Assembly (NCBI GenBank): GCA_938050265.1
Contig: CALLJT010000010.1
Coordinates: forward strand, 1 to 39,668
Direction of reading: 5' to 3'
DNA from: Candidatus Saccharimonadia bacterium
GTDB lineage: Bacteria; Patescibacteriota; Saccharimonadia; Saccharimonadales; SZUA-47
Length of the DNA: 39,668 bases
The position numbers and the translations under genes are program-made. Position 1 is the stretch's first letter; the number at the start of each line of letters is the position of its first letter. The notes below the pieces were generated by a model. That model was not told where the DNA came from and searched no databases. It worked only from the letters and a program-made list of their open reading frames with translations. Of this stretch, positions 2,235 through 35,693 are shown in pieces.

Positions 2235-2302
2235 TGCAACCCAATAGATTATTTAACAGTAAACTTGAGTGAACACTACTCTTAAGGAGCCACAAAAAAC
2301 CT

Positions 2303-2914
2303 ATGCCAATTATTAAGTCAGCTAAAAAGCGCGTACGAACCACGATCAAAGCGAGTATCCGTAATTCAAAAACTAAGCGAGACATGAGATCTACACTCAA
2401 ATCGTTCCAGACTGCCGTCGCTTCAAACAAAAACGTCGCACAAGCCCAGTCCTCTGCTCAGAGTGCTATTGATACAGCTGTCAAAAAGAACATCATCACC
2501 AAAAACAAAGCCGCACGCATGAAGAAAAACATCAGCGCTCAGGCAAAAACCGCGTCTACTGGACGCCCAACTACAGCTGCCAAAAAACCAGCTACTAAAA
2601 AAGCGACCGCGGCCAAGCCTGTGGCTAAAAAATCCCCAGCGAAAAAAGCACCCGCTAAAACAGCAGCTGACGATCTGACAAAAATTGAAGGTGTTGGACC
2701 GAAAATCAAAGATCTCCTGCACGCCGCAGACATCAAAACATTCCAGAACCTTGCAGATGCACCTACAGCAACAGTCAAGCAGGTTCTCGCAGACGCTGGT
2801 TCACGCTACGCAAGTCACGACCCTGGTACATGGGGCAAACAAGCCAAGCTTGCAGCTGATGGCAAATTCGACGAGCTCAAAACCCTCCAAGACAAGCTCG
2901 ACGGCGGCAAATAG
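2303..2914 (+). CDS. rpsT: 30S ribosomal protein S20 fused to a Lys/Ala/Pro-rich linker and a C-terminal helix-hairpin-helix-like domain
   Basis: The N-terminal ~85 aa (MPIIKSAKKRVRTT...KNKAARMKKNIS) are typical S20. The linker is KKPATKKATAAKPVAKKSPAKKAPAK. The C-terminus (LTKIEGVGPKIKDLL...TWGKQAKLAADGKFDELKTLQDKL) has an HhH G-P-K hairpin. A strong SD is present. Confidence 0.85.
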   Translation: MPIIKSAKKRVRTTIKASIRNSKTKRDMRSTLKSFQTAVASNKNVAQAQSSAQSAIDTAVKKNIITKNKAARMKKNISAQAKTASTGRPTTAAKKPATKKATAAKPVAKKSPAKKAPAKTAADDLTKIEGVGPKIKDLLHAADIKTFQNLADAPTATVKQVLADAGSRYASHDPGTWGKQAKLAADGKFDELKTLQDKLDGGK

Positions 2915-3106: not shown

Positions 3107-4015
3107 TTATACAGTCAGTAGGTACAGTTCGAGTGCCGCATCAGGGTCAGCCACCGATTTTATATCCCTATCTAGATTGAGCAAATCACGTACGTGACGC
3201 TTGGCATCATCTTTACTGACATCGCGAGCTATTTTAAGCGTTTTTCGCGCCGAATACGGTGACTGTCCGGCTGCTATGAGTGCCGACTCAGATTGGGGCT
3301 GTGCAAACACTGCCTGCGTCAGCGAATGTAGCTGCCATGTCAGCATCGACACTATGTAGTGTGGATCAATACGCTGCTTGCGTTGGTCTCTGTATTGAGC
3401 GACTGCTGCCTGAGCGTCACCTGCAAACACTGCGTCTAGCATGTCGAATATACTACTCTGTGGAGACTGTTCAACGTGCCTGTCGATGTCGCTTTTCGTT
3501 ATCTCTGAGGTGACAATGCTCAGCTTAGCAAGTTCGTTTTGCAACATGAATGTATTCACGCCAGCTCGCTCGACCAGATACACCGCGTCACGGTACTGCA
3601 GCGTCATGCCACGCTCCTGAGCCTGAGCGACAACCCACTTCGGCAGCTCATTCTGCTTCATTTCAGGATAGTCACGAATGTCTGCGTGTTTTTTAAGCGT
3701 TTTCCACGCCACGGAACGCTTATCCAGTTTTGAACCTCGTATGACAACATCCACCTGGTCTGCAGTACGATCAATGAGCTGATCAATACGCTCAAGGAGC
3801 TGTTTGTTCTCGTGTGGCTCATGAACCACCACGAGCTTACGCTCCACAAGAAACGGCACGCTCTGCACCGCCTGAATGACTGCGTCTGCGTCTTTTTCAG
3901 AGGCGTCGATCAGCTCAACACCAAACTCCCCCCGCTCACTCCGTGCTGCGCTCACCATATCGGTCAGCGCTGCGTGTATAGCGACTTCGTTTTTGCCCGT
4001 TAGTACAGTAATCAT
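3107..4015 (-). CDS. holA: DNA polymerase III delta subunit
   Basis: 302 aa with an N-terminus and length typical of HolA (MITVLTGKNE...). holA-rpsT adjacency, as I recall it in Firmicutes-type genomes, is consistent. Confidence 0.75.
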   Translation of the reverse strand: MITVLTGKNEVAIHAALTDMVSAARSERGEFGVELIDASEKDADAVIQAVQSVPFLVERKLVVVHEPHENKQLLERIDQLIDRTADQVDVVIRGSKLDKRSVAWKTLKKHADIRDYPEMKQNELPKWVVAQAQERGMTLQYRDAVYLVERAGVNTFMLQNELAKLSIVTSEITKSDIDRHVEQSPQSSIFDMLDAVFAGDAQAAVAQYRDQRKQRIDPHYIVSMLTWQLHSLTQAVFAQPQSESALIAAGQSPYSARKTLKIARDVSKDDAKRHVRDLLNLDRDIKSVADPDAALELYLLTV

Positions 4016-4066
4016 AGGTACTAGTATGCAAGTAGTGGGTAGTAAGTAGCAAGGGACTAAACAGTA

Positions 4067-5023
4067 TTATGCCTGACACTGTGGGCAGGTATGTGTACCG
4101 CGGCCAGCAACCTTGGATTTTTCTATAGTAGACCCACAGCGTGTGCACGGAAGACCCTCTCGCCGAAACACCTGTGCGAAACTGGTGTAGCTGCCTGACT
4201 CGCCTTCTGCATTAACGTATGTTTTATCAGTACTACCACCGTGTTCTATCGACAGTTTTAATACTCGTATGAGCTCGGTGTACAAAACTCTTAACCTATC
4301 GTCGGAAACAGCACTCACACGCTCTGTCGGGTGTATACGTGCCGCCCATAAGCTCTCGTCTGCATATATGTTTCCCACACCAGCAAGCACACTCTGGTCA
4401 AGCAGCGCCGCTTTGATCATCCTCTTGTTAGCAGTGCGCATACGTTGAACAAATATTGTGTTCACAAACGATGTATCAAGTGGCTCTGGTCCCAGCTTCT
4501 TAATAAATGGGTCGTCCTGCACCGCGTAACTCGGCAGGAGCTTGACCCAGCCAAACTTTCGCTGATCGTTGAAATACAAATGTGAACCATCCACAAACTC
4601 AAACACGACCCGTGTCGACTTGTCAGGCAGGTGACCCACAAGGCTTTCGTTTGGGTGCCCTGCTCCAAACCTGACTTCGTCGGGTGAGGTATGAAGACTG
4701 ATAGTTGAGCGCTGACGGTCCGCAGCCAACTTTGGAGTTTCAACTTTGGACTTTGAGCTGTGTTGTTCATTCGGGACAAAAACAAGCTGTCCTGTCATTT
4801 TCAGATGTATCAGGATCGAATACTCAGTACTGAGTGTGATCACCAGTGCCTTGCCTCTCCTCTGTACAGATTCGACACGAGCACCAATCAAAAACGCATC
4901 GACGTCATTACTACTGTTTGGGAACCCCTTAGGCCAGTCGTGTGACACATCGGCAACAGTTCTACCAACGATCAGACGCTCAAGCCCACGTTTAACTGTT
5001 TCAACTTCTGGTAGTTCTGGCAT
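4067..5023 (-). CDS. mutM: Formamidopyrimidine-DNA glycosylase (Fpg/MutM)
   Basis: MPELPEVETVKRG N-terminus with catalytic Pro2, an H2TH region and a C-terminal CxxC...CxxC zinc finger. The start was moved to the ATG at 5023; the longer ORF to 5179 is an upstream read-through. Confidence 0.9.
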   Translation of the reverse strand: MPELPEVETVKRGLERLIVGRTVADVSHDWPKGFPNSSNDVDAFLIGARVESVQRRGKALVITLSTEYSILIHLKMTGQLVFVPNEQHSSKSKVETPKLAADRQRSTISLHTSPDEVRFGAGHPNESLVGHLPDKSTRVVFEFVDGSHLYFNDQRKFGWVKLLPSYAVQDDPFIKKLGPEPLDTSFVNTIFVQRMRTANKRMIKAALLDQSVLAGVGNIYADESLWAARIHPTERVSAVSDDRLRVLYTELIRVLKLSIEHGGSTDKTYVNAEGESGSYTSFAQVFRREGLPCTRCGSTIEKSKVAGRGTHTCPQCQA

Positions 5024-5115
5024 GCATACTAGTATCGTGTACTGTCGTGGAACTATCAAGCACGACCGACACTTCACTCTTGATAGATCCACCCGCGTAC
5101 TCAATACTAGAGAGT

Positions 5116-5352
5116 ATGGAATCAATCTCTGATATAGCACGTGCGCGCAAACCAATTGAGCCGACGCAGATAGCAGCATTAAAAAAGTATGCTCAAGATA
5201 CGCACAACATCCAGATCTCTGTAAAACAGTCGAAACACATGTACCTCATCTACGTACCGAGTGCCGCATTCGCCCAAAAGTTCAGACACGAAACACAAGA
5301 CATAACGCGCCAATGCGAACTCGACAAGCCACTCGTGATACACATCGGATAA
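5116..5352 (+). CDS. Small hypothetical protein (possibly DUF721/DciA-like)
   Basis: 78-aa ORF from the ATG at 5116; the track ORF begins at a GTG at 5047. The resemblance to DUF721 is weak and from recall only. Confidence 0.4.
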   Translation: MESISDIARARKPIEPTQIAALKKYAQDTHNIQISVKQSKHMYLIYVPSAAFAQKFRHETQDITRQCELDKPLVIHIG

Positions 5353-5490: not shown

Positions 5491-6066
5491 GAGTCCGTGC
5501 TGTCGAAGCGCCTGTGTGCACGAAGAGATCCCCGTATACAACTCAGCAACCATGCCCACACTGCGTGCACCGTCAACGTTACGCTGTACATCATCAAAAA
5601 ACAGGCACTGTTCAGGCTTGATTGCGAGCTGGTCACTCACGTATTCGAATAAGCGACGATCAGGCTTAACATACCCAACTGCCCCACTCTCGACTATCGC
5701 ATCAAAATAATTGTCGACCTGCTCTGTCGATAGATTGCGAGCCAAAAACCCAGCCCCCACGTTCGAAACAATCGCAGTCTTCAGCCCTCGGCTGCGCAGC
5801 TCTGCGATGACCTGCAGTAGCCCTGGGTCGAGCGCACCCATCTGGTCACGCTCCCGGACGACCTCTTCCAGCTCACGCCCATATATCTCAGATGCAGCAC
5901 GCCAAAACTCATCGCGGTCGATATGACCATAGTTAGCTGCTCGGGCAATATCTGCAAGCTCCTGATCCTGTGCATCGGTCCTGTCAGGGATATACAGATT
6001 CGCTAGCCCCCATAACGTGTCTGCATGCAGCACGCCAAAAAAATCAAACAGCACGGCTTTAATCAT
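5488..6066 (-). CDS. HAD-superfamily hydrolase (subfamily IA-like)
   Basis: Motif I-like VLFDFFGVL (second Asp replaced), then IVSNVG, KPD and FFDDVQRN motifs. ATG at 6066 is preferred over the TTG at 6081. Confidence 0.75.
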   Translation of the reverse strand: MIKAVLFDFFGVLHADTLWGLANLYIPDRTDAQDQELADIARAANYGHIDRDEFWRAASEIYGRELEEVVRERDQMGALDPGLLQVIAELRSRGLKTAIVSNVGAGFLARNLSTEQVDNYFDAIVESGAVGYVKPDRRLFEYVSDQLAIKPEQCLFFDDVQRNVDGARSVGMVAELYTGISSCTQALRQHGL

Positions 6067-6139
6067 GCGTACTAGTATCAAGTACGACCCTCATAAATGC
6101 AATGCGTTCGGCATGCTCCGCACTGCTGCTTGCCTACTG

Positions 6140-6787
6140 CTAGTCGCGAGAGAGTCTGAGGCCAGTGTCAGATATAAGTTCGTTGAACTCTGGTACTTGT
6201 CGGATAAACAGACGGCGTACGGCGTTCATATTAGTGCCAGCCGTACCAGGAAACTCGTAGCATGACGTGAACCATCTACGCACATCGTCGCCGAGCTCTA
6301 ACACGTGCCGACGCCCATCAGGACAGACGCCTTTTTCTGCGAAATCGTCGTCAACTGACGTACCAAGTAATCGTGACGTAACGTTAAGCGCTTCGAGTGA
6401 TTCGATAAAGTTCGTATACGCTTCGTCGTTGTTACTATAGGTTTTTTCGTCGATAACAATCTGACCGTAGTTTGAATACACGCGCATCAATACGGTACCG
6501 CTCGAAACCTCAATCGTGTAACTTCGGTGATCCTGAGTCGCTACGATAGGGCCCTCTACGGTGTATCGCACTGTTCGTACGTTTAACAGTCCTTCTTCAC
6601 TGTCGCTATCGGCCACGCCACGGTTTTCAGATGTAGTCGTATCGTCTCCAGTGTTATCACTGCCAAACACTGTCCGGGCGAGCGAAGCGATACCCCATGT
6701 AATAAGGATAAACAGCAGTATACCGCCGATGATGAGTACGACCCATCGGATTTTAGAAACAACGTCAGTGTTAGCAATGAAGTCCAT
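6140..6787 (-). CDS. Membrane-anchored hypothetical protein
   Basis: 215 aa with a single N-terminal TM helix (VVLIIGGILLFILITWGIASL). No recognisable domain. Confidence 0.55.
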   Translation of the reverse strand: MDFIANTDVVSKIRWVVLIIGGILLFILITWGIASLARTVFGSDNTGDDTTTSENRGVADSDSEEGLLNVRTVRYTVEGPIVATQDHRSYTIEVSSGTVLMRVYSNYGQIVIDEKTYSNNDEAYTNFIESLEALNVTSRLLGTSVDDDFAEKGVCPDGRRHVLELGDDVRRWFTSCYEFPGTAGTNMNAVRRLFIRQVPEFNELISDTGLRLSRD

Positions 6788-6852
6788 AGCTATGTATTAT
6801 AGCATATTTATTGCATATAAGCAATAGCAACTTCCTGCTGTACGTATACTGT

Positions 6853-8635: not shown

Positions 8636-10345
8636 ATGCGATCATTTGTAATATACAACTATATATTGTATAGTATGTACATGAGTGTCGCTTCTCCTGA
8701 GCTCCTTCAGTCGCCAGAGGCTTTCAGCACCGAAGAGTTGAACCTTTTCGGCTTTTTCGCAGTCGAGGGCTACGAGCCTCGTATTATTCAGGACGAGGAA
8801 GGGGCAAAAGACGGAGAACTGAGTGAATTTATCTTTGTGCCGAAAGACCTGTTTGAAGCAGATAACGGTGCCGAAGATATGCCGTTCAGTAACGGCTTCC
8901 CCTTTACTCAATCTGGAGACTATAGGTGCAAAAAACATGGCTCGTATACCCAGACCGTCCTTGAACTTGGCGGGAGTGTGCTTGTCATGCCGACCAAATC
9001 AGCAGCTGGAGGCGTCAACACAGTTGTAGAAGGCATCTTCAACCCCCTGGACTTTGAAGAGGAGATGCGCAATAGAGGCATCGAACACACTGCAACTCGT
9101 GAAGAAGCAAGAGACATATTCAAAGCACTATCGCAACGAAAAAACTCAAACACACTAGCCGTTCAAGGCAGTTCAGGTGGAGCTGCAGCAGCTGCGCGCT
9201 TCATACATCTTGTGCCAGACCTTGCTAAACAGCTGTTTGGCGAAGATGTCGATGTATCAAAAATCGTATGGTTCGAAAGTGACTTGTCCGGCTCCGCACG
9301 TGACACACGCGCTTCCGTAGGAGCACCGATCGGCATGAAGCTACGTGCTACTAACCCCCATATAACACAGGGCAAAGAAGCAACGAGCAGTGTACACTCA
9401 CTCGCAGACCACGTCGTAACAGCCCACACGACAGAAGATACCGCTCGTATCAACCAGGCTATTGCCCAGCACCGACACCCACGTCGTATAGAACAAGCAC
9501 CTAACTGGCCAGGATTGATTGGCCGGAAAGCGTCAAAATTAGGTACGATTGCAGTTGTCCCGAGCATAGACAACGTGCAAGACTGGGCAGAAATCCACTC
9601 CAACCGAGAACGCCGTGCGTCGCTCAACCATGCGGCCGCACTCCTGAACCAAGCAGAAGGCATATCCGTCAAATGGTTCGATGAAGGACCCATGCCAGCA
9701 CACCACCCTGACGTGCTTGACATGTTCATCGATGCAACTGCAGACGCATCCAGAGAAGACAGACAATGGATAGACGATGCTGCAAAACGCATAGGCTACA
9801 AGGGACCAAAAGACAGAAAAGCACTCTCTGATGTGTACGCTGCTCTTTCTGTGCAGCAACTCGACCCATCTGCACTAAAAGGCATCGCAACTATACTCGA
9901 CAAGAACCGTGCACATGTCCGTGAATGGCTCTCAGGTAACAACGCATCAGCACTCATGTACGCTGAACCCCAAGAACAATACCCGACAGTTGGCGAGGGC
10001 CACATGCTACCCCCAATACTCAGTAAAACCATGGGGATAATGGCTGATAGTCGGTACGCGGACAACAAGACGTGGTCAAAAATGATGCACGAGATAGCCA
10101 AGTGGTCCTTAGGCGGCAGACTACCCGATAACGATGCTTGGACAGGCATACTCGATCTCGACGAGATAGTGTTCAACATCAATACTGGCGGAAACACACG
10201 ACCGCGGGCTATCGCAATCGCTACCCCCTATGTCCACCCGGAAGATTACGCGCAGTATCCAAACGAGGATCCCGTTACAGCAGGAGATGTCCTAGCACTC
10301 GCACACGAAGGAGGACCCCTGCATGGAGTGCTCGCCAAACTATAA
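8636..10345 (+). CDS. Large hypothetical protein with a possible alpha/beta-hydrolase nucleophile elbow
   Basis: 569-aa ORF. It has a G-S-S-G-G motif (GxSxG) in the context LAVQGSSGGAAAAARF and no other recognisable domain. The start is uncertain; alternatives are the ATGs at M14 and M16. Confidence 0.55.
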   Translation: MRSFVIYNYILYSMYMSVASPELLQSPEAFSTEELNLFGFFAVEGYEPRIIQDEEGAKDGELSEFIFVPKDLFEADNGAEDMPFSNGFPFTQSGDYRCKKHGSYTQTVLELGGSVLVMPTKSAAGGVNTVVEGIFNPLDFEEEMRNRGIEHTATREEARDIFKALSQRKNSNTLAVQGSSGGAAAAARFIHLVPDLAKQLFGEDVDVSKIVWFESDLSGSARDTRASVGAPIGMKLRATNPHITQGKEATSSVHSLADHVVTAHTTEDTARINQAIAQHRHPRRIEQAPNWPGLIGRKASKLGTIAVVPSIDNVQDWAEIHSNRERRASLNHAAALLNQAEGISVKWFDEGPMPAHHPDVLDMFIDATADASREDRQWIDDAAKRIGYKGPKDRKALSDVYAALSVQQLDPSALKGIATILDKNRAHVREWLSGNNASALMYAEPQEQYPTVGEGHMLPPILSKTMGIMADSRYADNKTWSKMMHEIAKWSLGGRLPDNDAWTGILDLDEIVFNINTGGNTRPRAIAIATPYVHPEDYAQYPNEDPVTAGDVLALAHEGGPLHGVLAKL

Positions 10346-10731: not shown

Positions 10732-10954
10732 CAAATGTAAGTCCGCTCTCTTTCAGCACCTCCTCAAAAGATACAGTCGGCTCCCGGCGGCGCTTTTTGA
10801 CTACTTGTGCGTCCTCAATGTCTTCAAGCATGTCCGCAAAATGTTCATTCACAATCTGCGAAACGGATAGCCTATCGGCAACCGCCTTGTGCTTGATGAA
10901 ACTCTTCACTTTAGGATTTAGATAGATCGTCGTTTTTTCAGATAAATTGCTCAT
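10715..10954 (-). CDS. Antitoxin (ribbon-helix-helix / RelB-like)
   Basis: 79-aa ORF overlapping the relE start by 17 nt. The TTIYLNPKVKSFIKHKA segment is RHH-like. Confidence 0.7.
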   Translation of the reverse strand: MSNLSEKTTIYLNPKVKSFIKHKAVADRLSVSQIVNEHFADMLEDIEDAQVVKKRRREPTVSFEEVLKESGLTFDDLRS

Positions 10955-10960
10955 TCTACC

Positions 10961-10989
10961 ATTATAGCGTCATGACGTTATAGCGTCAA
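10961..10989 (-). promoter_or_regulatory. Canonical promoter TTGACG-N17-TATAAT, 6 nt upstream of the antitoxin ATG (leaderless-type), with repeats in the spacer
   Basis: -35 at 10984-10989 and -10 at 10961-10966. The region carries the direct repeat GACGCTATAA x2. The promoter overlaps the stop codon of the upstream Nudix gene. Confidence 0.5.
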
Positions 10990-11810: not shown

Positions 11811-11843
11811 TAATTACCTACGTTCAAGTATAGCACTGCACGC

Positions 11844-12236: not shown

Positions 12237-12490
12237 TATTCTTGGTCCCAATCCTTCCCATAAAACAGTTCCTGGATCTCTGGGTCTGATCCAACAAAAA
12301 GAACGTCGTCCAGATGCCCTATCTCCTTTGACATCGATCCAAACTGTACAATTGTATCCTTGGGTATGGGTGCAATTATGGCGTCAGGCTTGCCATACGC
12401 GCCGACATAGATAGTCTCGCCTTTTTTTGCTCGTTTAACGAGCTTAGAGAGGTTCGTCTTTGCTTCATATATCGATAAAGTATCACTCAT
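12236..12490 (-). CDS. Phd/YefM-family antitoxin
   Basis: MSDTLSIYEAKTNLSKLVKRAKKGETIYV... Confidence 0.8.
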   Translation of the reverse strand: MSDTLSIYEAKTNLSKLVKRAKKGETIYVGAYGKPDAIIAPIPKDTIVQFGSMSKEIGHLDDVLFVGSDPEIQELFYGKDWDQE

Positions 12491-12500
12491 GATACTGTGC

Positions 12501-12529
12501 ATAATACTCCAATTTTTTTATTTGGTCAA
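12501..12529 (-). promoter_or_regulatory. Putative promoter TTGACC-N17-TATTAT, 10 nt upstream of the ATG
   Basis: Hexamers at 12524-12529 and 12501-12506. There is a tandem CTTGACC repeat (a second copy at 12535-12540). Confidence 0.4.
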
Positions 12530-13071: not shown

Positions 13072-13299
13072 TTATATATTCTCCTTTTTACGAATGAGTT
13101 GCTCAAATTGCTTGTCGCTAAAAACGTCCTCTACGCCGACTGCAAAGTGTCGGGCGATAATAAACGCTAGTTCTAGACTCGGGCTATAGTCACCCCGCTC
13201 AATAAACCCAACTGTCTGATAATTGACGCCGATAGCCTTTGCCAGATCTTGACGCGATTCTTTCCGGTCAGCTCGAAGTACTGCAATTCTGTTGTTCAT
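13072..13299 (-). CDS. XRE-family helix-turn-helix transcriptional regulator
   Basis: MNNRIAVLRADRKESRQDLAKAIGVNYQTVGFIERGDYSPSLELAFIIARHF. ATG at 13299 is preferred over the GTG at 13341. Confidence 0.85.
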   Translation of the reverse strand: MNNRIAVLRADRKESRQDLAKAIGVNYQTVGFIERGDYSPSLELAFIIARHFAVGVEDVFSDKQFEQLIRKKENI

Positions 13300-13308
13300 A
13301 GCAAACAG

Positions 13309-13337
13309 ATTGTTGCACAAGCGCAACAACATGTCAA
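13309..13337 (-). promoter_or_regulatory. Promoter TTGACA-N17-AACAAT with a near-palindromic operator in the spacer
   Basis: -35 at 13332-13337 and -10 at 13309-13314. The spacer palindrome TTGTTGCGC/GTGCAACAA lies at 13310-13329. The ATG is 9 nt downstream. Confidence 0.5.
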
Positions 13338-13750: not shown

Positions 13751-14021
13751 GCTTTTTCTTGTATTCTTCCGCCCGTACTTTGTTGGCCTTATCCATAATC
13801 TGTTCATCAGGCATCCCCAAGAGGCCTTTTGACTTCAAGTGTGCGTGCGCTTTTTTGCGAAGTACCATAAGATCTTCCTCGTAGGCGTCTGGCTTGACCG
13901 TAATGGTTTGGCCCCTCCGGTCCACCACAAGTCTATCACCAGTCTTAATATTCATGGAACGTCTTACTGATACGGGCAGTGTGATAGTTCCTTTGGATGT
14001 AACAGTGGTAGTGAATGCCAT
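13734..14021 (-). CDS. vapB: AbrB/MazE/SpoVT-type antitoxin (VapB-like)
   Basis: VTSKGTITLPVSVRRSMNIKTGDRLVV swapped-hairpin motif. Confidence 0.85.
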   Translation of the reverse strand: MAFTTTVTSKGTITLPVSVRRSMNIKTGDRLVVDRRGQTITVKPDAYEEDLMVLRKKAHAHLKSKGLLGMPDEQIMDKANKVRAEEYKKKHDIRS

Positions 14022-14030
14022 AATGTATGA

Positions 14031-14060
14031 AGTATATCACTTGTATTACCAAATTTTCAA
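14031..14060 (-). promoter_or_regulatory. Putative promoter TTGAAA-N18-TATACT, 9 nt upstream of the vapB ATG
   Basis: Hexamers at 14055-14060 and 14031-14036. The direct repeat ACTTCATAC x2 flanks the promoter. Confidence 0.4.
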
Positions 14061-14085: not shown

Positions 14086-16776
14086 CTACAGTTCGCTCCA
14101 CTTAGGGCCGATGGTCACGTCAACTTTCAGCTTCACGCCCAAGTCCGGCTTAATTCCTTCCATGATCTTTTTCATATCGGCGCCGATTTCTTCGGCATCG
14201 GACTCGGCGCACTCGATCATGATACTGTCATGCACCTGCATGATCTGGGCCGGCCATATCTTATCGCTCTTTGCTCGACGCTCTTCGAGCATCTGCTCGA
14301 CACTCACCATAGCCATCTTGGTCAGGTCGGCTGCCCCACCCTGGATCGGCATATTGATCGCTGCACGGTATGCGCCTTCACGCACCATGTACACACTTGA
14401 CTGCACGTCCGGGGTTGGTTTGCGGCGACCCATAATCGTTTCAACGTAGCCTTTGTTTTTGGCATCGTCTTTGAACTGATCGATCATGCCTTTGAGCTTT
14501 GGGCGGACTTCAAAATATTTATCTATAAAATCTTTTGCTTCGTCATACCCTATGCCTGTACCTGCAGCCAATCCGTGCACACCTTGCCCGTACAATATGC
14601 CGAAATTCACGGCTTTAGCGGCATAGCGCATTTCTTTGGTAACGTCATCTGCGTCCACACCCTGGATCAATGCAGCTGTTTCAGTGTGGATGTCACGGTC
14701 ATTGTTAAATGCGTTGATCATAGCTTCATCTGCACTCATTGCAGCTGCGATACGGAGCTCAAACTGGCTATAATCGGCGCTAATGATTACATTACCTGGC
14801 TCTGCGATAAAACCTCGTCGTATTTCACGACCCAACTCTGTCCGCACCGGAATGTTCTGTAGGTTTGGATCAGAGCTCGATAGCCGCCCGGTAGGTGTCA
14901 CCGTCAGACTCAGTGACCCATGGACCCTGTCGCCTTCGCCGACCATCGCCGGCAGCGGGTCAACATAGGTACTTTTAAGCTTAGTGTACTCACGGTAGCG
15001 CTCTATTTCTTCGACTATTGGGTGTAGGCCTTTGAGCTTCTCAAGCACGCCTACGGCCGTACTGTAATGACCGGATTTACCTTTTTTACTCACGTTAGTC
15101 GGCAGGCTCAGCGTCTCAAACAATATCTCCGACAGCTGGGCTGGGCTCGATATATTAAACTCCGTATCCGCATAGCCATAAATCGTTTGTTCAACATCGC
15201 CGATCCAGTCCTTGAGCTGCTCAGACAACTCAGCAAAAAACTCTACATCGAGCTTCATCCCGGTTCGTTCCATCCGAGCAAGTACCGGGATAATTGGCCA
15301 TTCAACGTGTTCAAGCAGCTTGATTACGCCCGTCAGTTCACTAACTTGTTCACCCTGTAGTTCAGCCAGTCTTCGAATAACTGCTACGATCTGAGGAGAC
15401 TTCGCTAGCAGCTCTTCGTCATCGAGCGCATCAAGCTCGGTGTCTATACCGATATCGCTTGCGGCTTGTTCAGTGAGTGACAGATCCTTACGCATGCTGT
15501 TGTGCACAAATGCACCGATATACGTGTCGTGCGTCACCGCAGGTAGGTTGTCTGCCCCAAGCTCTAACAGGGTTTGAAAATGTGTTTTGAGGTCATGACC
15601 GGTTATAGAGTTGAGCAGTGAACATTGAGCAACGAGCAATGGAGTAATTTCTTTTTTATTTTTGCGCAGATCGTACACATAACACGTTTTTTCATCAGAT
15701 AGGAACACGAACTTTGGGTCTACGCCGTGCTTGCCGGCACTCCGCGCGTGTAGCACAACATCACCCTCCAGCTCAACTTTGGTCTTGGCATCAACCATCA
15801 CAACCCGTGGCTTATGCAGATCATCTATATGGTTACGTTTGTCGTCCCCTGCTCCTTGCTCACTACTCACTGCTCCACTTGCCGACGCCCGCATGCCCTC
15901 CGGTAGATTCCTCAGAAGAGACCGGAACTCTAAACGTTTCAAAATATCTGCCAGCTTGTGAGCATCGAGCTTGTCCACGTCCATCTGGTCTAGATCGAGT
16001 CCAATCGGCGCGTCGTCAAACAGCCGAGCTACTTCCCGGCTCATATAGGCAGACTCCTTGCCTGCCTCAAGCTTCTTGGCCAATGAGTGCTTAATCAATG
16101 CCAGGTTTTCGTACACTCCGTCGAGTGTGTCATATTCCTGCAGCAACTTGGCTGCACCTTTTTCGCCTATGCCTGGCACGCCTGGTATGTTGTCGGAACT
16201 GTCACCCATGAGCGCTTTTGCATCCAAAAATTGATCAACGCGGATGCCGTATTTTTCTTCGAACGCTTTTGGATCATATTTGTGTATGTTGGTCAGGCCT
16301 TTTTTTAACGCATACATATGTGTGTGTTCATCTATACTCTGCAAAGCGTCCATGTCGCTGGTGATTAGCATCGTCTCGAGGCCCTCTTTGTGTGCCTTCA
16401 GAGCCATTGTGTGCATAATGTCGTCTGCTTCGTAGTCGTCGAACTCATATAGTGGCCAGTTAAACGCCGCGAGTACTTCGTGCAGTATGGGTATTTGTTC
16501 ATAAAAATCTGGCGGTGGAGGTTTACGCCCAGCTTTGTACTCAGGGTGAACTTTGAGCCGTTTGCGTATATTGGTCTTGGGCTTGTCCCACGCGACACAG
16601 ACGTAATCTGGCTCCAGCCGCTTGATCAGCTCCAGCGCCATCGCACAAAATCCGTAGACGCCACCTGTAGGCGTACCGTCCTTTGTGCGTAAATTTGGCA
16701 TCGCATAATACCCACGGTAGAAGACGCTTTTGCCGTCAATAATCGCTAATTTTTTCCGAGACGCTACTCCTGCCAT
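14086..16776 (-). CDS. polA: DNA polymerase I (5'-3' exonuclease, degenerate 3'-5' exonuclease-like region, polymerase domain)
   Basis: 896 aa. The N-terminal FEN-like domain reads LAIIDGKSVFYRGYYA. The C-terminus carries the family A motifs DYSQFELRI, RYAAKAVNFGILYG and QVHDSI. Confidence 0.97.
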   Translation of the reverse strand: MAGVASRKKLAIIDGKSVFYRGYYAMPNLRTKDGTPTGGVYGFCAMALELIKRLEPDYVCVAWDKPKTNIRKRLKVHPEYKAGRKPPPPDFYEQIPILHEVLAAFNWPLYEFDDYEADDIMHTMALKAHKEGLETMLITSDMDALQSIDEHTHMYALKKGLTNIHKYDPKAFEEKYGIRVDQFLDAKALMGDSSDNIPGVPGIGEKGAAKLLQEYDTLDGVYENLALIKHSLAKKLEAGKESAYMSREVARLFDDAPIGLDLDQMDVDKLDAHKLADILKRLEFRSLLRNLPEGMRASASGAVSSEQGAGDDKRNHIDDLHKPRVVMVDAKTKVELEGDVVLHARSAGKHGVDPKFVFLSDEKTCYVYDLRKNKKEITPLLVAQCSLLNSITGHDLKTHFQTLLELGADNLPAVTHDTYIGAFVHNSMRKDLSLTEQAASDIGIDTELDALDDEELLAKSPQIVAVIRRLAELQGEQVSELTGVIKLLEHVEWPIIPVLARMERTGMKLDVEFFAELSEQLKDWIGDVEQTIYGYADTEFNISSPAQLSEILFETLSLPTNVSKKGKSGHYSTAVGVLEKLKGLHPIVEEIERYREYTKLKSTYVDPLPAMVGEGDRVHGSLSLTVTPTGRLSSSDPNLQNIPVRTELGREIRRGFIAEPGNVIISADYSQFELRIAAAMSADEAMINAFNNDRDIHTETAALIQGVDADDVTKEMRYAAKAVNFGILYGQGVHGLAAGTGIGYDEAKDFIDKYFEVRPKLKGMIDQFKDDAKNKGYVETIMGRRKPTPDVQSSVYMVREGAYRAAINMPIQGGAADLTKMAMVSVEQMLEERRAKSDKIWPAQIMQVHDSIMIECAESDAEEIGADMKKIMEGIKPDLGVKLKVDVTIGPKWSEL

Positions 16777-16854
16777 ACCTACAGTATACGCCTTGGCTCT
16801 AGCAGATGTATACTGACTGTATAGACTACGAAACTAACTTAAGGAGAACCCAGC

Positions 16855-21241: not shown

Positions 21242-22996
21242 CTAATGTGTTTTTTCAGAGCTCGAAAACTGAACTATGAGATCGTCAAGCTGCTTAACTG
21301 CTTGTAGTAATATGCCTTGTTCGTTTTCTGTTGCTTCAGCGAGCTCTTGTGCGAGGGCTGATTTTTTCGTTTTTGCGTATACTCGTACCAGTCTGCTAAT
21401 GAGTCGATGGGCTTGATAGCGCAGCTCATGTTCGTCAGTATGCTGGTAGAATTCCTCGTATAGAAGTGCCAACATTGTACCATATTCTTTGTTATCGAGC
21501 GAAGGTGTGACGCCTGGGTGGTCGGCGATCAGTCGCGCCGCAGTCTGAGCCCCCTCAGAAAACACATCCACCGGGATACGTCGGACCATCTCCCCTATCA
21601 CACTATGCTTTGAGCCAAGGGCCAAAATGTGCTGTTCGCGAACACGCTGTTCTTTAGCACTCTGCTGTTCATCTTGTTTTTGCGGGGCTACACGCTTGAG
21701 TCGTTTTTGTGTCGTCTGCTTGGCATTGATTTTGTCAGTGATTGTTTGTATCGACGTGCTTGTGCGTGTGGCCAGCACATCCGCATAATGCTCTTGTTCG
21801 ACGGGGTCGCTGAGCTGTTTTAATATAGGTATAATTTCGGCTACAAATCGTCGTTTACCCTGTGCGCTTTTCATGTCTACACTGCCTGCGACCCGGTCGA
21901 TCAGCCAATCCACCATATACTGTGGGTTTTCAACGACAGCCTGCCACAATCGGGCGTCCTGCGCGATCAGCTCGTCCGGGTCTTTACCCTCTGGGACCGA
22001 AATAATGCTCATGTCGATACCACCGAGGCTTTGAGCGAGTGGGATCGCCCGTTTTGCTGCGTCGTGACCCGCCCGGTCGTCATCAAACGCTACTCGAATA
22101 TCGCCCGTGAACCGCTTAAGACTTTTCAGATGATGCGACGTTAAAGCAGTTCCGGCGCTGGCCACAACATTACACACGCCAGCCTGATGAGACGCTACTA
22201 CATCCAGGTTGCCCTCGACAACGACCGCAAACCCTTGTTTACGGATGGCTTCCTTCGCGAGATAAAACCCAAACACTTGCCTGCCTTTGTCGTACAACTG
22301 TGTCGCTGGCGTATTGATATATTTCGGACCATGTGCCGTGTCGGACAGTTTACGTGCGGTGAACCCAACGGGCCGACCCTGTCCATCTCGCAGAGGTATC
22401 ATCACCCGACCGCGAAACATATCGTAGACATCTGAGCCACGACTACTCACAAGACCTGCCTGTTTCAACTCATCCGCATCGTATCCTTTCGATGTGAGGT
22501 GTTTTAGAAGTGCTTTGCCACTCTCTGGCGCATATCCAAACCGAAAATCCAGTATAGTCTGCTTACTATAGCCGCGTTTCTTGCGCACATATTCTAGTGG
22601 CGGTGTTGTGCGAGTTAGTTGTACCTGATAAAACTTCACCGCTGCTTCTACGGCTTCGTATAGTCGTTTTTTTGATCCAGAACTATTCGGTGCTTGGTCA
22701 CGAGTACCTGTGCGGTACTGCTCCAGATCGACACCGGCTTTCCTGGCGAGTACCTCAAGTGAACCTTTGAAATCCAAACCCTCTACTTCCTGAATAAAGC
22801 TGAACATATCACCACCGCGCCCTGAGCTGAAGTCATGCCATATTTGTTTCTCTGGGCTCACAACAAAACTCGGAGACTTTTCGTTTGTCCAAGGGCTCAG
22901 GCCTTTGAAGTTGCGACCAGCGCGCTTCAGCTGCACGTATTCACTCACAACGTCTTCTATGTCTAGGCGTGATTTGATATCTGCAACAGCATCCAT
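21242..22996 (-). CDS. dnaG: DNA primase
   Basis: The N-terminus is unusual: the zinc-ribbon region GLSPWTNEKSPSFVVSPEKQIWHDFSSGRGGDMFSF has no cysteines. A TOPRIM EGNLDV motif is present. The start was set to MDAVADIK (22996); the 41 upstream codons run into the repeat element. Confidence 0.92.
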   Translation of the reverse strand: MDAVADIKSRLDIEDVVSEYVQLKRAGRNFKGLSPWTNEKSPSFVVSPEKQIWHDFSSGRGGDMFSFIQEVEGLDFKGSLEVLARKAGVDLEQYRTGTRDQAPNSSGSKKRLYEAVEAAVKFYQVQLTRTTPPLEYVRKKRGYSKQTILDFRFGYAPESGKALLKHLTSKGYDADELKQAGLVSSRGSDVYDMFRGRVMIPLRDGQGRPVGFTARKLSDTAHGPKYINTPATQLYDKGRQVFGFYLAKEAIRKQGFAVVVEGNLDVVASHQAGVCNVVASAGTALTSHHLKSLKRFTGDIRVAFDDDRAGHDAAKRAIPLAQSLGGIDMSIISVPEGKDPDELIAQDARLWQAVVENPQYMVDWLIDRVAGSVDMKSAQGKRRFVAEIIPILKQLSDPVEQEHYADVLATRTSTSIQTITDKINAKQTTQKRLKRVAPQKQDEQQSAKEQRVREQHILALGSKHSVIGEMVRRIPVDVFSEGAQTAARLIADHPGVTPSLDNKEYGTMLALLYEEFYQHTDEHELRYQAHRLISRLVRVYAKTKKSALAQELAEATENEQGILLQAVKQLDDLIVQFSSSEKTH

Positions 22997-23071
22997 ACCT
23001 CTAGTATCGTGTATCGTCCTATAAAAACAAAGCATGTACGCTTCGAATGCCCTGTCTGCCATGCAGTGTTT

Positions 23072-23189: not shown

Positions 23190-23232
23190 GCAGTGTTTTG
23201 CCGCTTATGATTAAAATGGTAAAATTATAGGC

Positions 23233-23946
23233 ATGCAACCAGACCTACAAAATGGCGAAGAAAACCCCTACGGCTTTATATTCGACCAGAATTCTCAGAC
23301 GACACCCGGCACCAACACGGCGGCTGTCGGAGCAGACAAAACCAAGCAGTACCTCCTGTTTGGCGTATTCGCACTCGCTATCTTAGCAATTGCAGGTATT
23401 GCAGCAACCATATTCCTGAAGCCCACCCCACCGTCAGCACCTGAGCTCGTCCGTGTACGTGCAATTCAAAACGAACTTATCCGCGTCCGCGAAATCGGCA
23501 ACAAAAACCTTGGACAATACGATCTACGAAAAGATGTAGACACTATCAATCTTGTCCTGCAAACCGACACTGCAACAATTAGCGGCCTCATCAGAACCAG
23601 AGGTGTCGTCACCCTGCCTGGCGAACTATCACAGTTCAAAAACTCAACCTACGATACAAGTCTGCAAAACGCGCTCAGTAACGACACACATGACACGGTC
23701 TACCGCGATATCGTGGACCAGCTGGCTGGACAGTACTATGAATCAGTCAAAGCGGCCGAAAACCGTGCGGTCAGCAGAACCGAACAGGCCCAACTAGCAG
23801 CAGTACGTAGCAACATCGAAATCACGTTCGACTTCGAAGACCCGTCTGAGAGTACCGAGTCTACCGAGCGACAAGACACAGCGACAGAACCAAGCGAACC
23901 TGACGCAGACACCGCCGATGAACCTATCCCAAGCCTGTTTAATTAA
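23233..23946 (+). CDS. Membrane-anchored hypothetical protein
   Basis: 237 aa with one TM helix (YLLFGVFALAILAIAGIAATIFL) and an acidic C-terminal tail. Confidence 0.55.
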   Translation: MQPDLQNGEENPYGFIFDQNSQTTPGTNTAAVGADKTKQYLLFGVFALAILAIAGIAATIFLKPTPPSAPELVRVRAIQNELIRVREIGNKNLGQYDLRKDVDTINLVLQTDTATISGLIRTRGVVTLPGELSQFKNSTYDTSLQNALSNDTHDTVYRDIVDQLAGQYYESVKAAENRAVSRTEQAQLAAVRSNIEITFDFEDPSESTESTERQDTATEPSEPDADTADEPIPSLFN

Positions 23947-27299: not shown

Positions 27300-28505
27300 C
27301 TACGTAGCTAATCGCTCTATGGCGTTCATGAATGCTGCGTTTTTAAGGCTTGTTTGTGCGGACTGCGCCCGCTCATACATAGCTTGGACTGCCTGTTTTT
27401 GCTGCTGTGCGAGCTTGTCGTTCACCTGCTGCTCTGTCCATTGCTCGTGTGCCATATTCTGCAACCATTCAAAATAACTCACCGTGACCCCACCGGCGTT
27501 CGCGATAATGTCCGGTATCACCTGTACGCCGGCCGCATATAACGCGTCCTCGACATCAGCATCGACTGGGCCGTTCGCCAGCTCCAATATGTACTGTGCC
27601 TGAACGCTCGTGTAGTTTTCTTCGTCGACCACGTCGCCGAGTGCAGCAAGCACTAAAACATCCGCTTTTGCTGCCACCACATCGTCGTTTGTCAGCGCCT
27701 GCCCCTGTCCGTAGTCACGCAGTTTTCCGCCACCTGTTTTATACGCGATAACTTCTGCGACGTCGAAGCCATCTTCGCTGTACACGCCGCCACTCGAATC
27801 CGTCACCCCGACCAATTTCCATTCTGGATGCTGTTCAGCTGCAACCTGTGCGAAAAACTGCCCCGCGTTACCAAATCCCTGTAGTACATACGTCAGTGGC
27901 TGGCCTGCGTTGCCTTCTAGCTGACGCAGTTCCGCCAGTGTTATTGCGCCGCCACGCCCGGTCGCTTCATTACGACCCAAACTACCACCACCGGCTATCG
28001 ATTTACCGGTAAAACTACCCCTCGTCGTGTCGCCAGTCAACTGTGAATATTCATCAACCATCCAGTCCATGATCTGGCTGTTCGTGTTCACGTCCGGTGC
28101 TGGTATGTCTTGCTCAGGACCGATATGATCGACGAGCCCTCGCACAAACTGACGTGATACTTCTTCTAGGTCTGCGTCTGTTAGCTGTTTAGGGTCGACC
28201 TCGACGCCGCCCTTGCCCCCTCCGAGTGGTATAGCTACAGCGGCGGTTTTGAAGCTCATGAGTGTTGCCAGCGCCTGTACTTCGTCACGGTCCACTTCCG
28301 GGTGGAAGCGTATGCCGCCTTTATACGGTCCGCGCTTGTTACTATGCTGCACACGAAACGCGCTATATTTTTTGCCACTCTCAAGTTCGATCGCAAACTC
28401 ATGCACTGCATCAGGTTTCTGCAGTACAGCTAACTGTTCATCGGTCAGTCCAAGCAGTTTTGCCGCTCGTGTAATGTTTTTCTGTGCTGAATCCAACATA
28501 GCCAT
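27300..28505 (-). CDS. gdhA: Glutamate dehydrogenase (Glu/Leu/Phe/Val dehydrogenase family)
   Basis: GPYKGGIRFHP catalytic motif, a GFGNAG dinucleotide fold and a GAGGAG SD. Confidence 0.92.
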   Translation of the reverse strand: MAMLDSAQKNITRAAKLLGLTDEQLAVLQKPDAVHEFAIELESGKKYSAFRVQHSNKRGPYKGGIRFHPEVDRDEVQALATLMSFKTAAVAIPLGGGKGGVEVDPKQLTDADLEEVSRQFVRGLVDHIGPEQDIPAPDVNTNSQIMDWMVDEYSQLTGDTTRGSFTGKSIAGGGSLGRNEATGRGGAITLAELRQLEGNAGQPLTYVLQGFGNAGQFFAQVAAEQHPEWKLVGVTDSSGGVYSEDGFDVAEVIAYKTGGGKLRDYGQGQALTNDDVVAAKADVLVLAALGDVVDEENYTSVQAQYILELANGPVDADVEDALYAAGVQVIPDIIANAGGVTVSYFEWLQNMAHEQWTEQQVNDKLAQQQKQAVQAMYERAQSAQTSLKNAAFMNAIERLAT

Positions 28506-28545
28506 CTATAGATACTCCTCTTTATGTACCCATAGTACAACGAGC

Positions 28546-28923: not shown

Positions 28924-29209
28924 ACTTTTCACCAACGCTTTCTGCGTACAGCTCCTTGATAGATTTGTTGGGATCTAATACGGCCTTGCCTGCTCGACTT
29001 TCGCTCAATACAAGTGCTTTGTCTATGGCACGATGTATAGCTTCTGCTGACCCAGGTTCAGAACTAGAAAGCTTGGGCGTGCTTGAATTAATCGTAACCA
29101 GTGGTTTGGATCGGTGCAACACAGTAACCTGGTGGCCGTCGCCTAAACTCCGCAGAAACGGCACCAGGTTTTTACGAATTTCAGATGTACTGACAATATC
29201 TAAGTTCAT
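28910..29209 (-). CDS. Phd/YefM-like antitoxin
   Basis: MNLDIVSTSEIRKNLVPFLRSL...VTVLHRSKPLVTI. TAGTAT lies 6 nt upstream of this ATG, with TTGAGT 17 nt further up. Confidence 0.62.
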   Translation of the reverse strand: MNLDIVSTSEIRKNLVPFLRSLGDGHQVTVLHRSKPLVTINSSTPKLSSSEPGSAEAIHRAIDKALVLSESRAGKAVLDPNKSIKELYAESVGEKYGVR

Positions 29210-29291
29210 GCCCATATACTAACATGACATTAACGTAAACTCAAGTTCAAGTGTAGTTAAACTTGTACCTTTTGCTTGCTCCACTACCCGC

Positions 29292-31407: not shown

Positions 31408-31643
31408 TCCCCGTGTCCGTTGTTAATGGAATCGTACTGCATTTTGTAGAGCGGTGGATCCAACGAAGAATCTTCTTGCGAATACAGTTCATTCAGTTGT
31501 CTTTTAGTAGCTTCACCCTCGATACGCTCTATATACTCTTCTAGAGCCCGTGCGTAAAACTTACTTCTGGAGCCGCCCATCTTTTTCGCGTGGTGCTCCG
31601 CCTTACTAAAAGTCGAGTCTGGGATAGATACTGCTATTTTCAT
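31401..31643 (-). CDS. mazE: Ribbon-helix-helix (CopG/MazE-type) antitoxin
   Basis: MKIAVSIPDSTFSKAEHHAKKMGGSRSKFYARALEEYI. ATG at 31643 is preferred over the GTG at 31649. Confidence 0.8.
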   Translation of the reverse strand: MKIAVSIPDSTFSKAEHHAKKMGGSRSKFYARALEEYIERIEGEATKRQLNELYSQEDSSLDPPLYKMQYDSINNGHGEW

Positions 31644-31649
31644 ACCCAC

Positions 31650-31678
31650 AGTATAACAAAAAGTATTACGCTATCCAA
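31650..31678 (-). promoter_or_regulatory. Putative mazEF promoter TTGGAT-N17-TATACT, 6 nt from the ATG (leaderless-type)
   Basis: -10 at 31650-31655 and -35 at 31673-31678. The heptad array starts 2 nt further upstream. Confidence 0.45.
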
Positions 31679-31679
31679 A

Positions 31680-31749: not shown

Positions 31750-31809
31750 CTAGTGAGTATGCCCTACTTATCCCCATTCTGAAACAAAATACTATATACT
31801 CTTAGCTAT

Positions 31810-32535
31810 ATGGGAGACCCAACGAAACTCATTGTACAAGCTGTGCGCCTCTGGATGGCACGCTTTGCTCGGTGGCTCAACGCCGTAACCAACGGCGCCG
31901 TGTTGCCCGTGCATATCACTATACTGTCGCTTCTCGGCCACTTCAGCGTCGTGTGGGCACTCTGGGACTCTCGCCCAGTGCTCGCTGCGGGACTACTGAC
32001 TGGGTTTGGCCTCCTTGATGCACTCGACGGTGCACTCGCGAGAGAACAAGGAACAGCGAGCAAACTTGGCATGCTGTTTGACGCAGTTACCGACCGACTC
32101 AAAGAAACGCTGGTCTACGTCGGCCTGATCGTGTACGCAGGCAATCATGTATCCGAAGTCCGTCCCTGGGTAATCGTCGCGGTTGCTGGTACGTCCTTGC
32201 TTGTCAGTTATGTAAAAGCCAAAAGCGAAATGGCTGTCGCCGACTCTCATGCGGACCGCCAGAAACTCAACCAGATGTTTTCCATCGGCCTCGCACGGTA
32301 TGAAATCCGCACGACAATCGTAGTCGTTGGGCTCCTCATGCCCGTGCTGCTCGCACCGCTCCTGCACTTCACGATCGCTATCAACCTCATGACTGCAGCG
32401 CTGCGGTTTCTCCAAGCGGCAGAGGTCCTACAAAAAGAGAACTCAGAAGAGTCATCCGACTCTCAAAACACAACAAAAACGCTCCCACAACGCACAGCCA
32501 CGTCCAGGAAACAAAAGAAAGACAAGAAAAAATGA
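31810..32535 (+). CDS. CDP-alcohol phosphatidyltransferase
   Basis: Exact signature D-x2-DG-x2-AR-x8-G-x3-D-x3-D (DALDGALAREQGTASKLGMLFDAVTD). Multi-TM protein with a Lys-rich tail. Confidence 0.88.
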   Translation: MGDPTKLIVQAVRLWMARFARWLNAVTNGAVLPVHITILSLLGHFSVVWALWDSRPVLAAGLLTGFGLLDALDGALAREQGTASKLGMLFDAVTDRLKETLVYVGLIVYAGNHVSEVRPWVIVAVAGTSLLVSYVKAKSEMAVADSHADRQKLNQMFSIGLARYEIRTTIVVVGLLMPVLLAPLLHFTIAINLMTAALRFLQAAEVLQKENSEESSDSQNTTKTLPQRTATSRKQKKDKKK

Positions 32536-33775: not shown

Positions 33776-33843
33776 GCTTCTAGTATCTCAAACAGCTGCG
33801 GAATATGAAACATGACTTTTCAGCAGCATTGCTAAAACGTAGC

Positions 33844-35623: not shown

Positions 35624-35693
35624 TACCTGTATGATAGCAGTTTTATTGGGCGAATATATAGGTTTTCATGGTCTATTCTCATCGAGCTGTGGC

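Follow-up and report, generated by a model that had tools for sequence, protein, structure and literature searches.

The closest described counterpart of the arrangement reported here is the group C class of GeneMarkS-2, in which a Pribnow box lies about 6–8 nucleotides (nt) before the start of operon-first genes and which is frequent in Actinobacteria (90%) and Deinococcus-Thermus (97%) (PMC6028130). Leaderless mRNAs have been mapped experimentally in Mycobacterium tuberculosis (PMC3898074) and also in M. smegmatis (PMC4633059), and a further report describes toxin-antitoxin (TA) transcripts as predominantly leaderless in those Actinobacteria (PMC8485053). For N. lyticus (TM7x), 188 transcription start sites (TSS) from RNA sequencing are used in PMC12641261, which remarks only on an unusually variable distance between the -10 element and the TSS. 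Our full-text literature search retrieved no paper linking leaderless mRNAs to Saccharibacteria, Patescibacteria or the candidate phyla radiation (CPR); what it did return was limited to items in reference lists or a comment on YchF. The gene organization itself is already known, as the group C type, and Saccharibacteria appear not to have been described as its bearer in the literature searched. Here we analyse a 39,668-nt stretch of DNA from a Candidatus Saccharimonadia bacterium (contig CALLJT010000010.1), hereafter the window, in which mutM and many other genes start a few nt downstream of a hexamer resembling a bacterial -10 element. These hexamers are very probably sigma-70-type -10 boxes of leaderless mRNAs, coexisting with genes led by a Shine–Dalgarno (SD) site.

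The window has a G+C content of ~50%, its polA product is 52–73% identical to homologues from 80 genomes of Saccharibacteria (TM7, Patescibacteria/CPR), and a run search found its sequence in marine metagenome DNA runs only (runs X1, X2). Pfam scans identify core, replication and repair genes (holA, mutM, polA, dnaG, rpoD, argS and rpsT), gdh, mscL, three Nudix genes, two HAD hydrolases and six TA-like pairs. The site in focus is the start of mutM (fpg), where the following elements succeed one another on the minus strand, listed here from the start codon upstream:

5021..5023, minus strand: start codon ATG of mutM, followed by CCA GAA CTA CCA GAA, giving the protein N-terminus MPELPE
5024..5030, minus strand: 7-nt spacer AGTATGC between the -10 box and the ATG, without an SD site
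5031..5036, minus strand: mutM -10 box GATACT, spacer 7
5054..5059, minus strand: mutM -35 hexamer TTGATA, 17 nt upstream of the -10 box

The N-terminal proline of Fpg/MutM proteins is catalytic and obligatorily N-terminal. The start codon of mutM is secure because MPELPE represents this catalytic N-terminus and the Pfam Fapy_DNA_glyco domain begins exactly there. The 7-nt spacer leaves no room for an SD site, and, from the usual 7-nt distance between a -10 element and the first transcribed base, transcription of mutM is predicted to start on the A of this ATG or one nt upstream.

The same geometry recurs across the window, for which 47 genes with curated starts were counted. Nineteen of them (~40%) carry a -10-like box 6–10 nt before the ATG and no SD core. 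The spacer is 6–7 nt long in 14 of the 19, every box has A at position 2 and T at position 6, a pyrimidine occupies position -1 in 17, a TGn extension precedes the box in nine, and six promoters have a -35 hexamer that matches at 5–6 of 6 positions at a distance of 17–18 nt. A preliminary description of the window had listed such hexamers before 15 genes; all 16 of its hexamer positions prove exact, on the strand it gave, with spacers of 6–10 nt, and its genes are indeed free of a GGAG, GAGG or AGGA core at -17 to -4, save for a distant GGAG 16 nt before the phd start. Four box-bearing genes come in addition: the divergent neighbour of mutM (ORF 5116-5352, plus strand; hereafter orf5116), hyp569 at 8681, hyp237 at 23233 and hyp199 at 38849.

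This placement exceeds expectation. The string ATACT, followed after 6–9 nt by the ATG of an open reading frame (ORF) of at least 60 codons, is seen 12 times against 1.95 expected (p=7e-7), and TA[TC]A[AC]T under the same geometry rule 8 times against 1.43 (p=1e-4); the looser TANNNT, with 21 occurrences versus 16.9 expected, does not reach significance within the window by itself. Within the first 20 kb, the best four full sigma-70 matches (10–11 of 12 positions) lie directly before the starts of relB, vapB, xre and phd, while the total of such matches, 28 versus 20.9 ± 4.6, is not significant. The signal of the sigma-70 matches lies in their position, not in their number.

We examined ~1.45 Mb from 80 other Saccharibacteria, in which gene starts were called blindly, by taking long non-overlapping ORFs and using the first ATG of each (1,265 genes). 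The result is a sharp peak at spacers of 6–9 nt that is absent in Escherichia coli. TA[TC]A[AC]T occurs 95, 63, 54 and 44 times at spacers of 6, 7, 8 and 9 nt, respectively, against about 3 per other position, and a broader -10-like pattern at spacers of 6–9 nt is present in 29.8% of the 1,265 genes, as opposed to 7–8% at offsets of 21–24 or 31–34 nt. An identical script run on 200 kb of E. coli K-12 finds the box geometry in 0 of 164 genes, 47% of which have an SD. A second, independent set of 120 rRNA-linked loci, collected with a TM7-specific 16S probe and including Nanosynbacter sp. TM7-087 (L186; L-numbers denote sampled related loci) and not TM7x, has the box in 16% of its genes, with the peak again at spacer 6. 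Aligned, the boxes of the relatives give the consensus tggTAtAaT, an extended -10 element; the commonest hexamers are TATACT (98), TATAAT (64) and TACAAT (59), a TGn precedes 28% of the boxes as opposed to 11% at a control position, and an SD core is present in just 13 of the 376 box-bearing genes.

The arrangement is also conserved gene by gene. Among the roughly 70 polA orthologues inspected, 63 place (g)TATACT or TATAAT 5–10 nt upstream of the ATG, and no other upstream sequence is conserved. A box at 6–9 nt is found in 52 of 58 mutM orthologues, in 30 of 45 dnaG orthologues, often together with a conserved TTGATA at -35, in all 10 orthologues of orf5116 and in 9 of 20 of holA, with rpsT showing the opposite balance (box in 8 of 42, SD-led in 29 of 42). 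The box is thus kept at the same distance before the orthologues of polA, mutM, dnaG and orf5116 within flanking DNA that is not conserved. Two genes depart from constancy. In many relatives, holA is coupled to the end of mutM by AAGGAG, whereas in the window it has a box-at-ATG promoter of its own; and in three loci (L017, L020 and L078) the polA box lies 22–25 nt upstream, ahead of a purine-rich, SD-bearing leader. These polA and holA variants indicate that the initiation mode has switched during evolution.

RNA polymerase usually initiates about 7 nt after the -10 element, at a purine preceded by a pyrimidine. From the geometry, the positional statistics, the promoter-like traits and the gene-by-gene conservation observed here, we infer that the hexamers belong to sigma-70 promoters of a genome-specific consensus, nATACT or TATAAT, often with an extended TGn and with a weak to moderate -35 element, whose box ends 6–9 nt before the ATG. 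With this spacing, and initiation at ~7 nt, transcription would begin at the A of the ATG or 0–3 nt from it. An mRNA that starts at the ATG has no room for an SD, so that the ribosome would bind the 5'-terminal AUG directly and translation would proceed without a leader. Overlapping or abutting genes within operons, and a probably highly expressed set (rpsT, gdh, the SPFH gene and mscL), use an AGGAG SD instead.

At mutM, the -10 box overlaps a palindrome:

5026..5035, no strand assigned: 10-bp palindrome ATACTAGTAT, overlapping the mutM -10 box; sole exact copy in the window

The preliminary description presented this palindrome as common to several of the boxes and as a -10 element readable on both strands. 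A shared core, TACTAGTA, does occur at holA, mutM and the first HAD hydrolase gene (HAD1), but the claim was otherwise overstated, as the full 10-mer occurs once and is not conserved in relatives. We reject the palindrome as a bidirectional promoter: nothing suggests firing from the opposite strand, where no ATG or ORF follows it at holA, mutM or HAD1, and orf5116 has a separate AATACT box at a distance of 70 nt. As a class-wide element it is likewise rejected, since it is missing from orthologous promoters and is not enriched across relatives.

A different possibility is that the palindrome, written as ATACTAGTA(T/C) at holA, mutM and the HAD gene, serves as operator for a dimeric regulator in charge of a small replication and repair regulon, with the overlap of the -10 box leading to repression. 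The window holds four copies of TACTAGTA against 0.34 expected, three of them at the starts of the neighbouring genes holA, mutM and HAD1, and 11 copies of ATACTAG against 3.2 expected, six of them at leaderless-type starts; given this overrepresentation of ATACTAG, the genome seems to favour AG after the box. The holA, mutM and HAD1 promoters have 12–16 nt in common, the mutM and HAD1 versions (GATACTAGTATGCATG and GATACTAGTACGCATG) differ by one base, and the HAD orthologue in the closest relative (L001) also carries TATACTAGT. We nevertheless regard an operator as unlikely. The full instances number just three, all adjacent; the mutM, holA and dnaG promoters of other Saccharibacteria lack the palindrome and have ordinary TACAAT, TATAAT or TATACT boxes in its place; 2.27 Mb of related loci show no enrichment of ATACTAGTAT, whose 10 strand-counts are close to chance, and AG after ATACT at start-like sites is no commoner there than TA, GT or AA; a -10 core ATACT followed by AGTA yields the palindrome automatically; and no regulator was identified. 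We read the palindrome as ATACT plus a locally shared downstream AGTA, an incidental feature of three neighbouring genes. The fourth copy of TACTAGTA, ATACTAGTAC at 7630-7639, lies out of frame inside the gene with a phosphoenolpyruvate (PEP)-utilising domain, with no long ORF after it on either strand, and is probably a chance copy.

The hexamer could also be a non-SD translation signal on a leadered mRNA, either an A/T-rich ribosome binding site or an unstructured region, like the group B motif of Bacteroidota. Its distance to the start is about that of an SD, and an initial rough split, which counted genes with a co-directional neighbour no more than 60 nt away as operon-internal, found it at similar frequencies in these and in first genes. 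Dividing the genes of the relatives by gap reverses this impression: when fewer than 5 nt separate a gene from its co-directional upstream neighbour, that is, in overlapping or abutting genes, the box falls to the background level of 4% and an SD is present instead, in 32%, whereas at gaps of 20–60 nt the box is found in 46% and an SD in 12%. The motif moreover has the anatomy of a promoter (TAnnnT with a TGn extension, joined at the best sites by a TTGACA-like hexamer 17 nt away), and it pairs with one start codon only. We compared all candidate starts close to the 5' ends of long ORFs. Where a box precedes the candidate, the codon is ATG in 91.5% of cases and GTG and TTG are no more frequent than in the offset control, which amounts to ~100% ATG after background subtraction; where an SD precedes it, the codon is ATG in 66%, GTG in 18.5% and TTG in 15.5%. 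The base at -1 is a pyrimidine in 83% of spacer-6 genes of the relatives compared with 58% of box-less genes (p=1e-10). Transcription starts usually favour a pyrimidine at -1 and a purine at +1, so the bias fits a transcription start at the A of the ATG. The SD pathway, for its part, is intact, because a Nanosynbacter 16S rRNA has the canonical anti-SD CCUCC at its end, and the window contains AGGAG SDs. All this makes a translation signal very improbable. That the pattern is an artefact of wrong start codons, with the real starts elsewhere and the hexamer-adjacent ATGs coincidental, is barely credible: five or six small genes do have several in-frame ATGs 6–45 nt apart, among which the choice was partly guided by the box, but the mutM start is fixed by its catalytic Pro2, the Pfam domains of dnaG, polA, argS, vapB, the second HAD gene (HAD2) and the flavodoxin-like oxidoreductase gene (NQO) start no more than a few residues from the chosen N-termini, the class-wide peak came from the blind first-ATG rule, and codons are conserved from the ATG onward, as the upstream DNA is not.

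The interpretation of the hexamers as -10 boxes of leaderless mRNAs, proposed in the preliminary description, is thus supported by several independent tests, none of which was bound to succeed: the positional peak, the TGn and, at the best sites, -35 elements, the loss at overlapping genes, the ATG bias, the pyrimidine at -1 and conservation. Several observations count against it. The spacers of 8–10 nt at hyp215, xre, vapB, the CDP-alcohol phosphatidyltransferase gene (CDP-OH) and phd probably give leaders of 1–4 nt, which are not strictly leaderless. The boxes GATACT, CATACT and AATACT are off consensus at -12, and AACAAT at xre is weak. The -35 element is weak class-wide, with at least 4 of 6 matches in 19% of cases as opposed to 14% at a control position. 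The starts of phd, the phd-like gene, mazE, hyp569 and hyp199 were picked among nearby ATGs partly by their fit to the pattern. Finally, in a search of RNA runs none contains the window sequence, and those that match the Nanosynbacter locus L186 are assemblies of tiny contigs, at 90–95% identity, that are uninformative on 5' ends.

The other box-bearing genes of the window, apart from mutM and orf5116, are as follows:

4013..4028, minus strand: holA; CATACT 4023-4028, 7 nt, ATG 4015-4013
6064..6102, minus strand: HAD hydrolase (HAD1); TTGCAT, 17 nt, GATACT 6074-6079, 7 nt, ATG 6066
6785..6801, minus strand: hyp215, 215 aa; TGcTATAAT (box 6796-6801), 8 nt, ATG 6787
8646..8683, plus strand: hyp569, hypothetical 554-aa gene; TTGTAA, 17 nt, TATAGT 8669-8674, 6 nt, ATG 8681
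10952..10989, minus strand: relB-like antitoxin; TTGACG, 17 nt, TATAAT 10961-10966, 6 nt, ATG 10954
12488..12529, minus strand: phd antitoxin; TTGACC, 17 nt, TATTAT 12501-12506, 10 nt, ATG 12490
13297..13337, minus strand: xre-type helix-turn-helix gene; TTGACA, 17 nt, TGcAACAAT (box 13309-13314), 9 nt, ATG 13299
14019..14060, minus strand: vapB/AbrB-type antitoxin; TTGAAA, 18 nt, TGaTATACT (box 14031-14036), 9 nt, ATG 14021
16774..16788, minus strand: polA; TATACT 16783-16788, 6 nt, ATG 16776
22994..23008, minus strand: dnaG; GATACT 23003-23008, 6 nt, ATG 22996
23220..23235, plus strand: hyp237, 237 aa; TGgTAAAAT (box 23220-23225), 7 nt, ATG 23233
29207..29221, minus strand: phd-like antitoxin; TGtTAGTAT (box 29216-29221), 6 nt, ATG 29209
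31641..31655, minus strand: mazE-position antitoxin; TGtTATACT (box 31650-31655), 6 nt, ATG 31643
31795..31812, plus strand: CDP-alcohol phosphatidyltransferase (CDP-OH); TATACT 31795-31800, 9 nt, ATG 31810
33773..33787, minus strand: flavodoxin-like NAD(P)H oxidoreductase (NQO); TGaGATACT (box 33782-33787), 6 nt, ATG 33775
35621..35636, minus strand: second HAD hydrolase (HAD2); TGcTATCAT (box 35631-35636), 7 nt, ATG 35623
38837..38851, plus strand: hyp199, hypothetical 192-aa gene; TACAAT 38837-38842, 6 nt, ATG 38849

The last of these genes follows closely on a tRNA gene, the sole match of an Rfam scan of the whole window:

38696-38788, plus strand: tRNA-Ser(GCT), only RNA gene by Rfam and ARAGORN, just upstream of the leaderless-type gene starting at 38849

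The antitoxin genes had all been assigned to the leaderless type, which agrees with our counts for the relB-like gene, phd, vapB, the phd-like gene and mazE and extends to xre, phd (spacer 10) and xre (AACAAT) being the weakest cases. The relB-like promoter is the top sigma-70 match of the first 20 kb (11 of 12 positions). For phd, a leader of a few nt is likely, and ATG 12502 is a possible alternative start. Toxin genes that overlap their antitoxin genes have no box. Six TA-like pairs in 39.7 kb (10474-14021, 28546-29215 and 31066-31649) are dense for a reduced genome; they comprise ParE/RelB-like, PIN/Phd, Xre with a 142-aa partner, PIN/AbrB-type VapB, PIN/Phd-like and MazF with a protein in the MazE position. 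Short repeats accompany their promoters, all on the minus strand. Two copies each of GACGCTATAA, ACTTGACC and ACTTCATAC lie over or beside the -35 and -10 elements of relB (10952-11010), phd (12488-12560) and vapB (14019-14085), respectively; a 9-bp inverted repeat spans the xre -10 box (13297-13360); and ACTTGA occurs twice at the phd-like promoter (29207-29270) and GAGACGT four times at that of mazE (31641-31710). The repeats at these six antitoxin promoters look like the operators through which TA operons repress themselves.

About 10 window genes carry an AGGAG-type SD 4–13 nt before the start: rpsT, the PEP-utilising-domain gene, hyp142, the Nudix gene next to polA, hyp527, orn, the YjbR-domain gene, mscL, gdh and the SPFH gene. 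The coexistence of two initiation modes, which the preliminary description deduced from genes such as rpsT, this Nudix gene, gdh, SPFH, orn and mscL, is borne out by the contrast of 19 box genes with these ~10. Their SD sites are:

2285..2305, plus strand: rpsT, SD-led; AGGAG 2285-2289, 13 nt, ATG 2303
28503..28519, minus strand: gdh, SD-led; AGGAG 28515-28519, 9 nt, ATG 28505
8547-8552: further SD site
13081-13085: further SD site
16842-16846: further SD site
17521-17525: further SD site
24382-24386: further SD site
24957-24961: further SD site
25420-25423: further SD site
38010-38015: further SD site

Upstream of rpsT, a promoter-like TTTACT, 17 nt, TATACT arrangement at 2206-2234 would give a leader of ~60 nt. 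The 78-bp divergent intergenic region between polA and its Nudix neighbour (16777-16854) contains two TATACT boxes in opposite orientations. The polA-side box (16783-16788, minus strand) ends 6 nt before the ATG and is of the leaderless type, and some 40 nt separate the Nudix-side box (16809-16814, plus strand) from the Nudix ATG, which is preceded by AGGAG at 16842-16846; since the two boxes differ in their distance to the ATG, the region appears to hold both modes side by side. The candidate reader of these elements is encoded downstream of dnaG:

19773-21152, minus strand: rpoD, primary sigma-70 factor with regions 1.2, 2, 3 and 4 by Pfam; candidate reader of the -10 and -35 elements

Near the only in-frame ATG of rpoD itself (21152; region 21153-21241, minus strand), there is no SD and no -10 box. 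An AATACT at 21241-21236, directly after the dnaG stop codon, would give rpoD a leader of ~80 nt in which no SD is obvious. A search with the first 70 residues of RpoD matches no orthologue.

Opposite mutM, the preliminary list lacked the following gene:

5080..5118, plus strand: promoter and start of orf5116 (ORF 5116-5352, 78 aa), divergent from mutM; TTGATA, 17 nt, AATACT 5103-5108, 7 nt, ATG 5116

The orf5116 product has no Pfam match. Its homologues adjoin mutM in at least 10 other Saccharibacteria, all with a -10 box 6–9 nt before the ATG, and in several of these relatives the divergent mutM and orf5116 ATGs are only ~25–35 nt apart, which places the two -10 boxes back to back. Where orf5116 and the HAD gene converge, positions 5371-5490 (plus strand), between their ends, form one long irregular hairpin of ~120 nt, closed by a perfect 13-bp stem (GACCCACGUCCAC / GUGGACGUGGGUC) and topped by a UUCG-type tip, with a minimum free energy of -75.5 kcal/mol and a z-score of -7.3 against shuffled sequences. 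An Rfam search assigns the hairpin to no family up to E<=10, and none of the 200 related loci matches its sequence; the structure could be a bidirectional terminator or a small RNA not yet described.

Whether the entire Saccharibacteria, in all orders sampled (polA identities as low as ~52%), are mostly leaderless, with the mode fixed per gene over deep time and occasional switches, is to our minds about an even bet. Under this lineage-wide view, box-at-ATG starts may outnumber SD starts about 2:1 at the beginnings of transcription units, with polA, mutM and dnaG leaderless and rpsT SD-led. If true and unreported, an ultrasmall, ribosome-reduced lineage living on Actinobacteria would join the leaderless-rich bacteria, which raises the questions of a possible ancestral origin of the trait and of a connection with a reduced translation apparatus or with leaderless-rich hosts. 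Leaderless initiation is often discussed as ancestral, and a deep-branching, reduced lineage relying on it would offer a useful comparison. There would be practical consequences as well. Nearly all Saccharibacteria and CPR genomes are metagenome-assembled, with starts called by programs that mostly seek SD sites; if 25–40% of genes are leaderless, a -10 box 6–9 nt upstream would be the better start signal, and many N-termini could be corrected, including those of mutM, dnaG, phd, the phd-like gene, mazE, hyp569 and hyp199 in the window. The compact promoter and initiation module TGnTATACT, 6 nt, ATG could serve in constructs for the few genetically tractable Saccharibacteria. As a leaderless mRNA has no leader for translational control, the TA operons and the replication and repair genes here are predicted to be controlled at their promoters only.

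Of the known systems, the motif of Bacteroidota group B (PMC6028130) resembles the present one in being a non-SD element at a short, fixed distance from the start, but it precedes all genes, including operon-internal ones, and is not a promoter, whereas the motif of Saccharibacteria is lost at overlapping genes and has promoter anatomy. The lambda cI mRNA made from PRM (PMC10491246) and other leaderless mRNAs of E. coli share the 5'-terminal AUG, a start on its A and the lack of an SD. They are rare cases in an SD-dominated genome, as the control reflects, whereas in Saccharibacteria the arrangement is the commonest one at first genes. The nearest likeness is to group C in Actinobacteria and Deinococcus, where a Pribnow box again stands 6–8 nt before operon-first genes and an SD serves the rest, the -35 element is weak, the -10 element is TAnnnT or extended, and a quarter to a half of transcription units are involved. 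The predominantly leaderless TA modules in Actinobacteria (PMC8485053) have their parallel in the leaderless-type TA operons of the window. The pattern was established there by differential RNA sequencing and ribosome profiling and is read here from sequence alone. It also differs in its bearers, which here are ultrasmall, reduced-genome episymbionts, and in its commonest hexamer, TATACT. Mycobacterial leaderless genes also use GTG freely, whereas in Saccharibacteria the start that follows the box is almost solely ATG.

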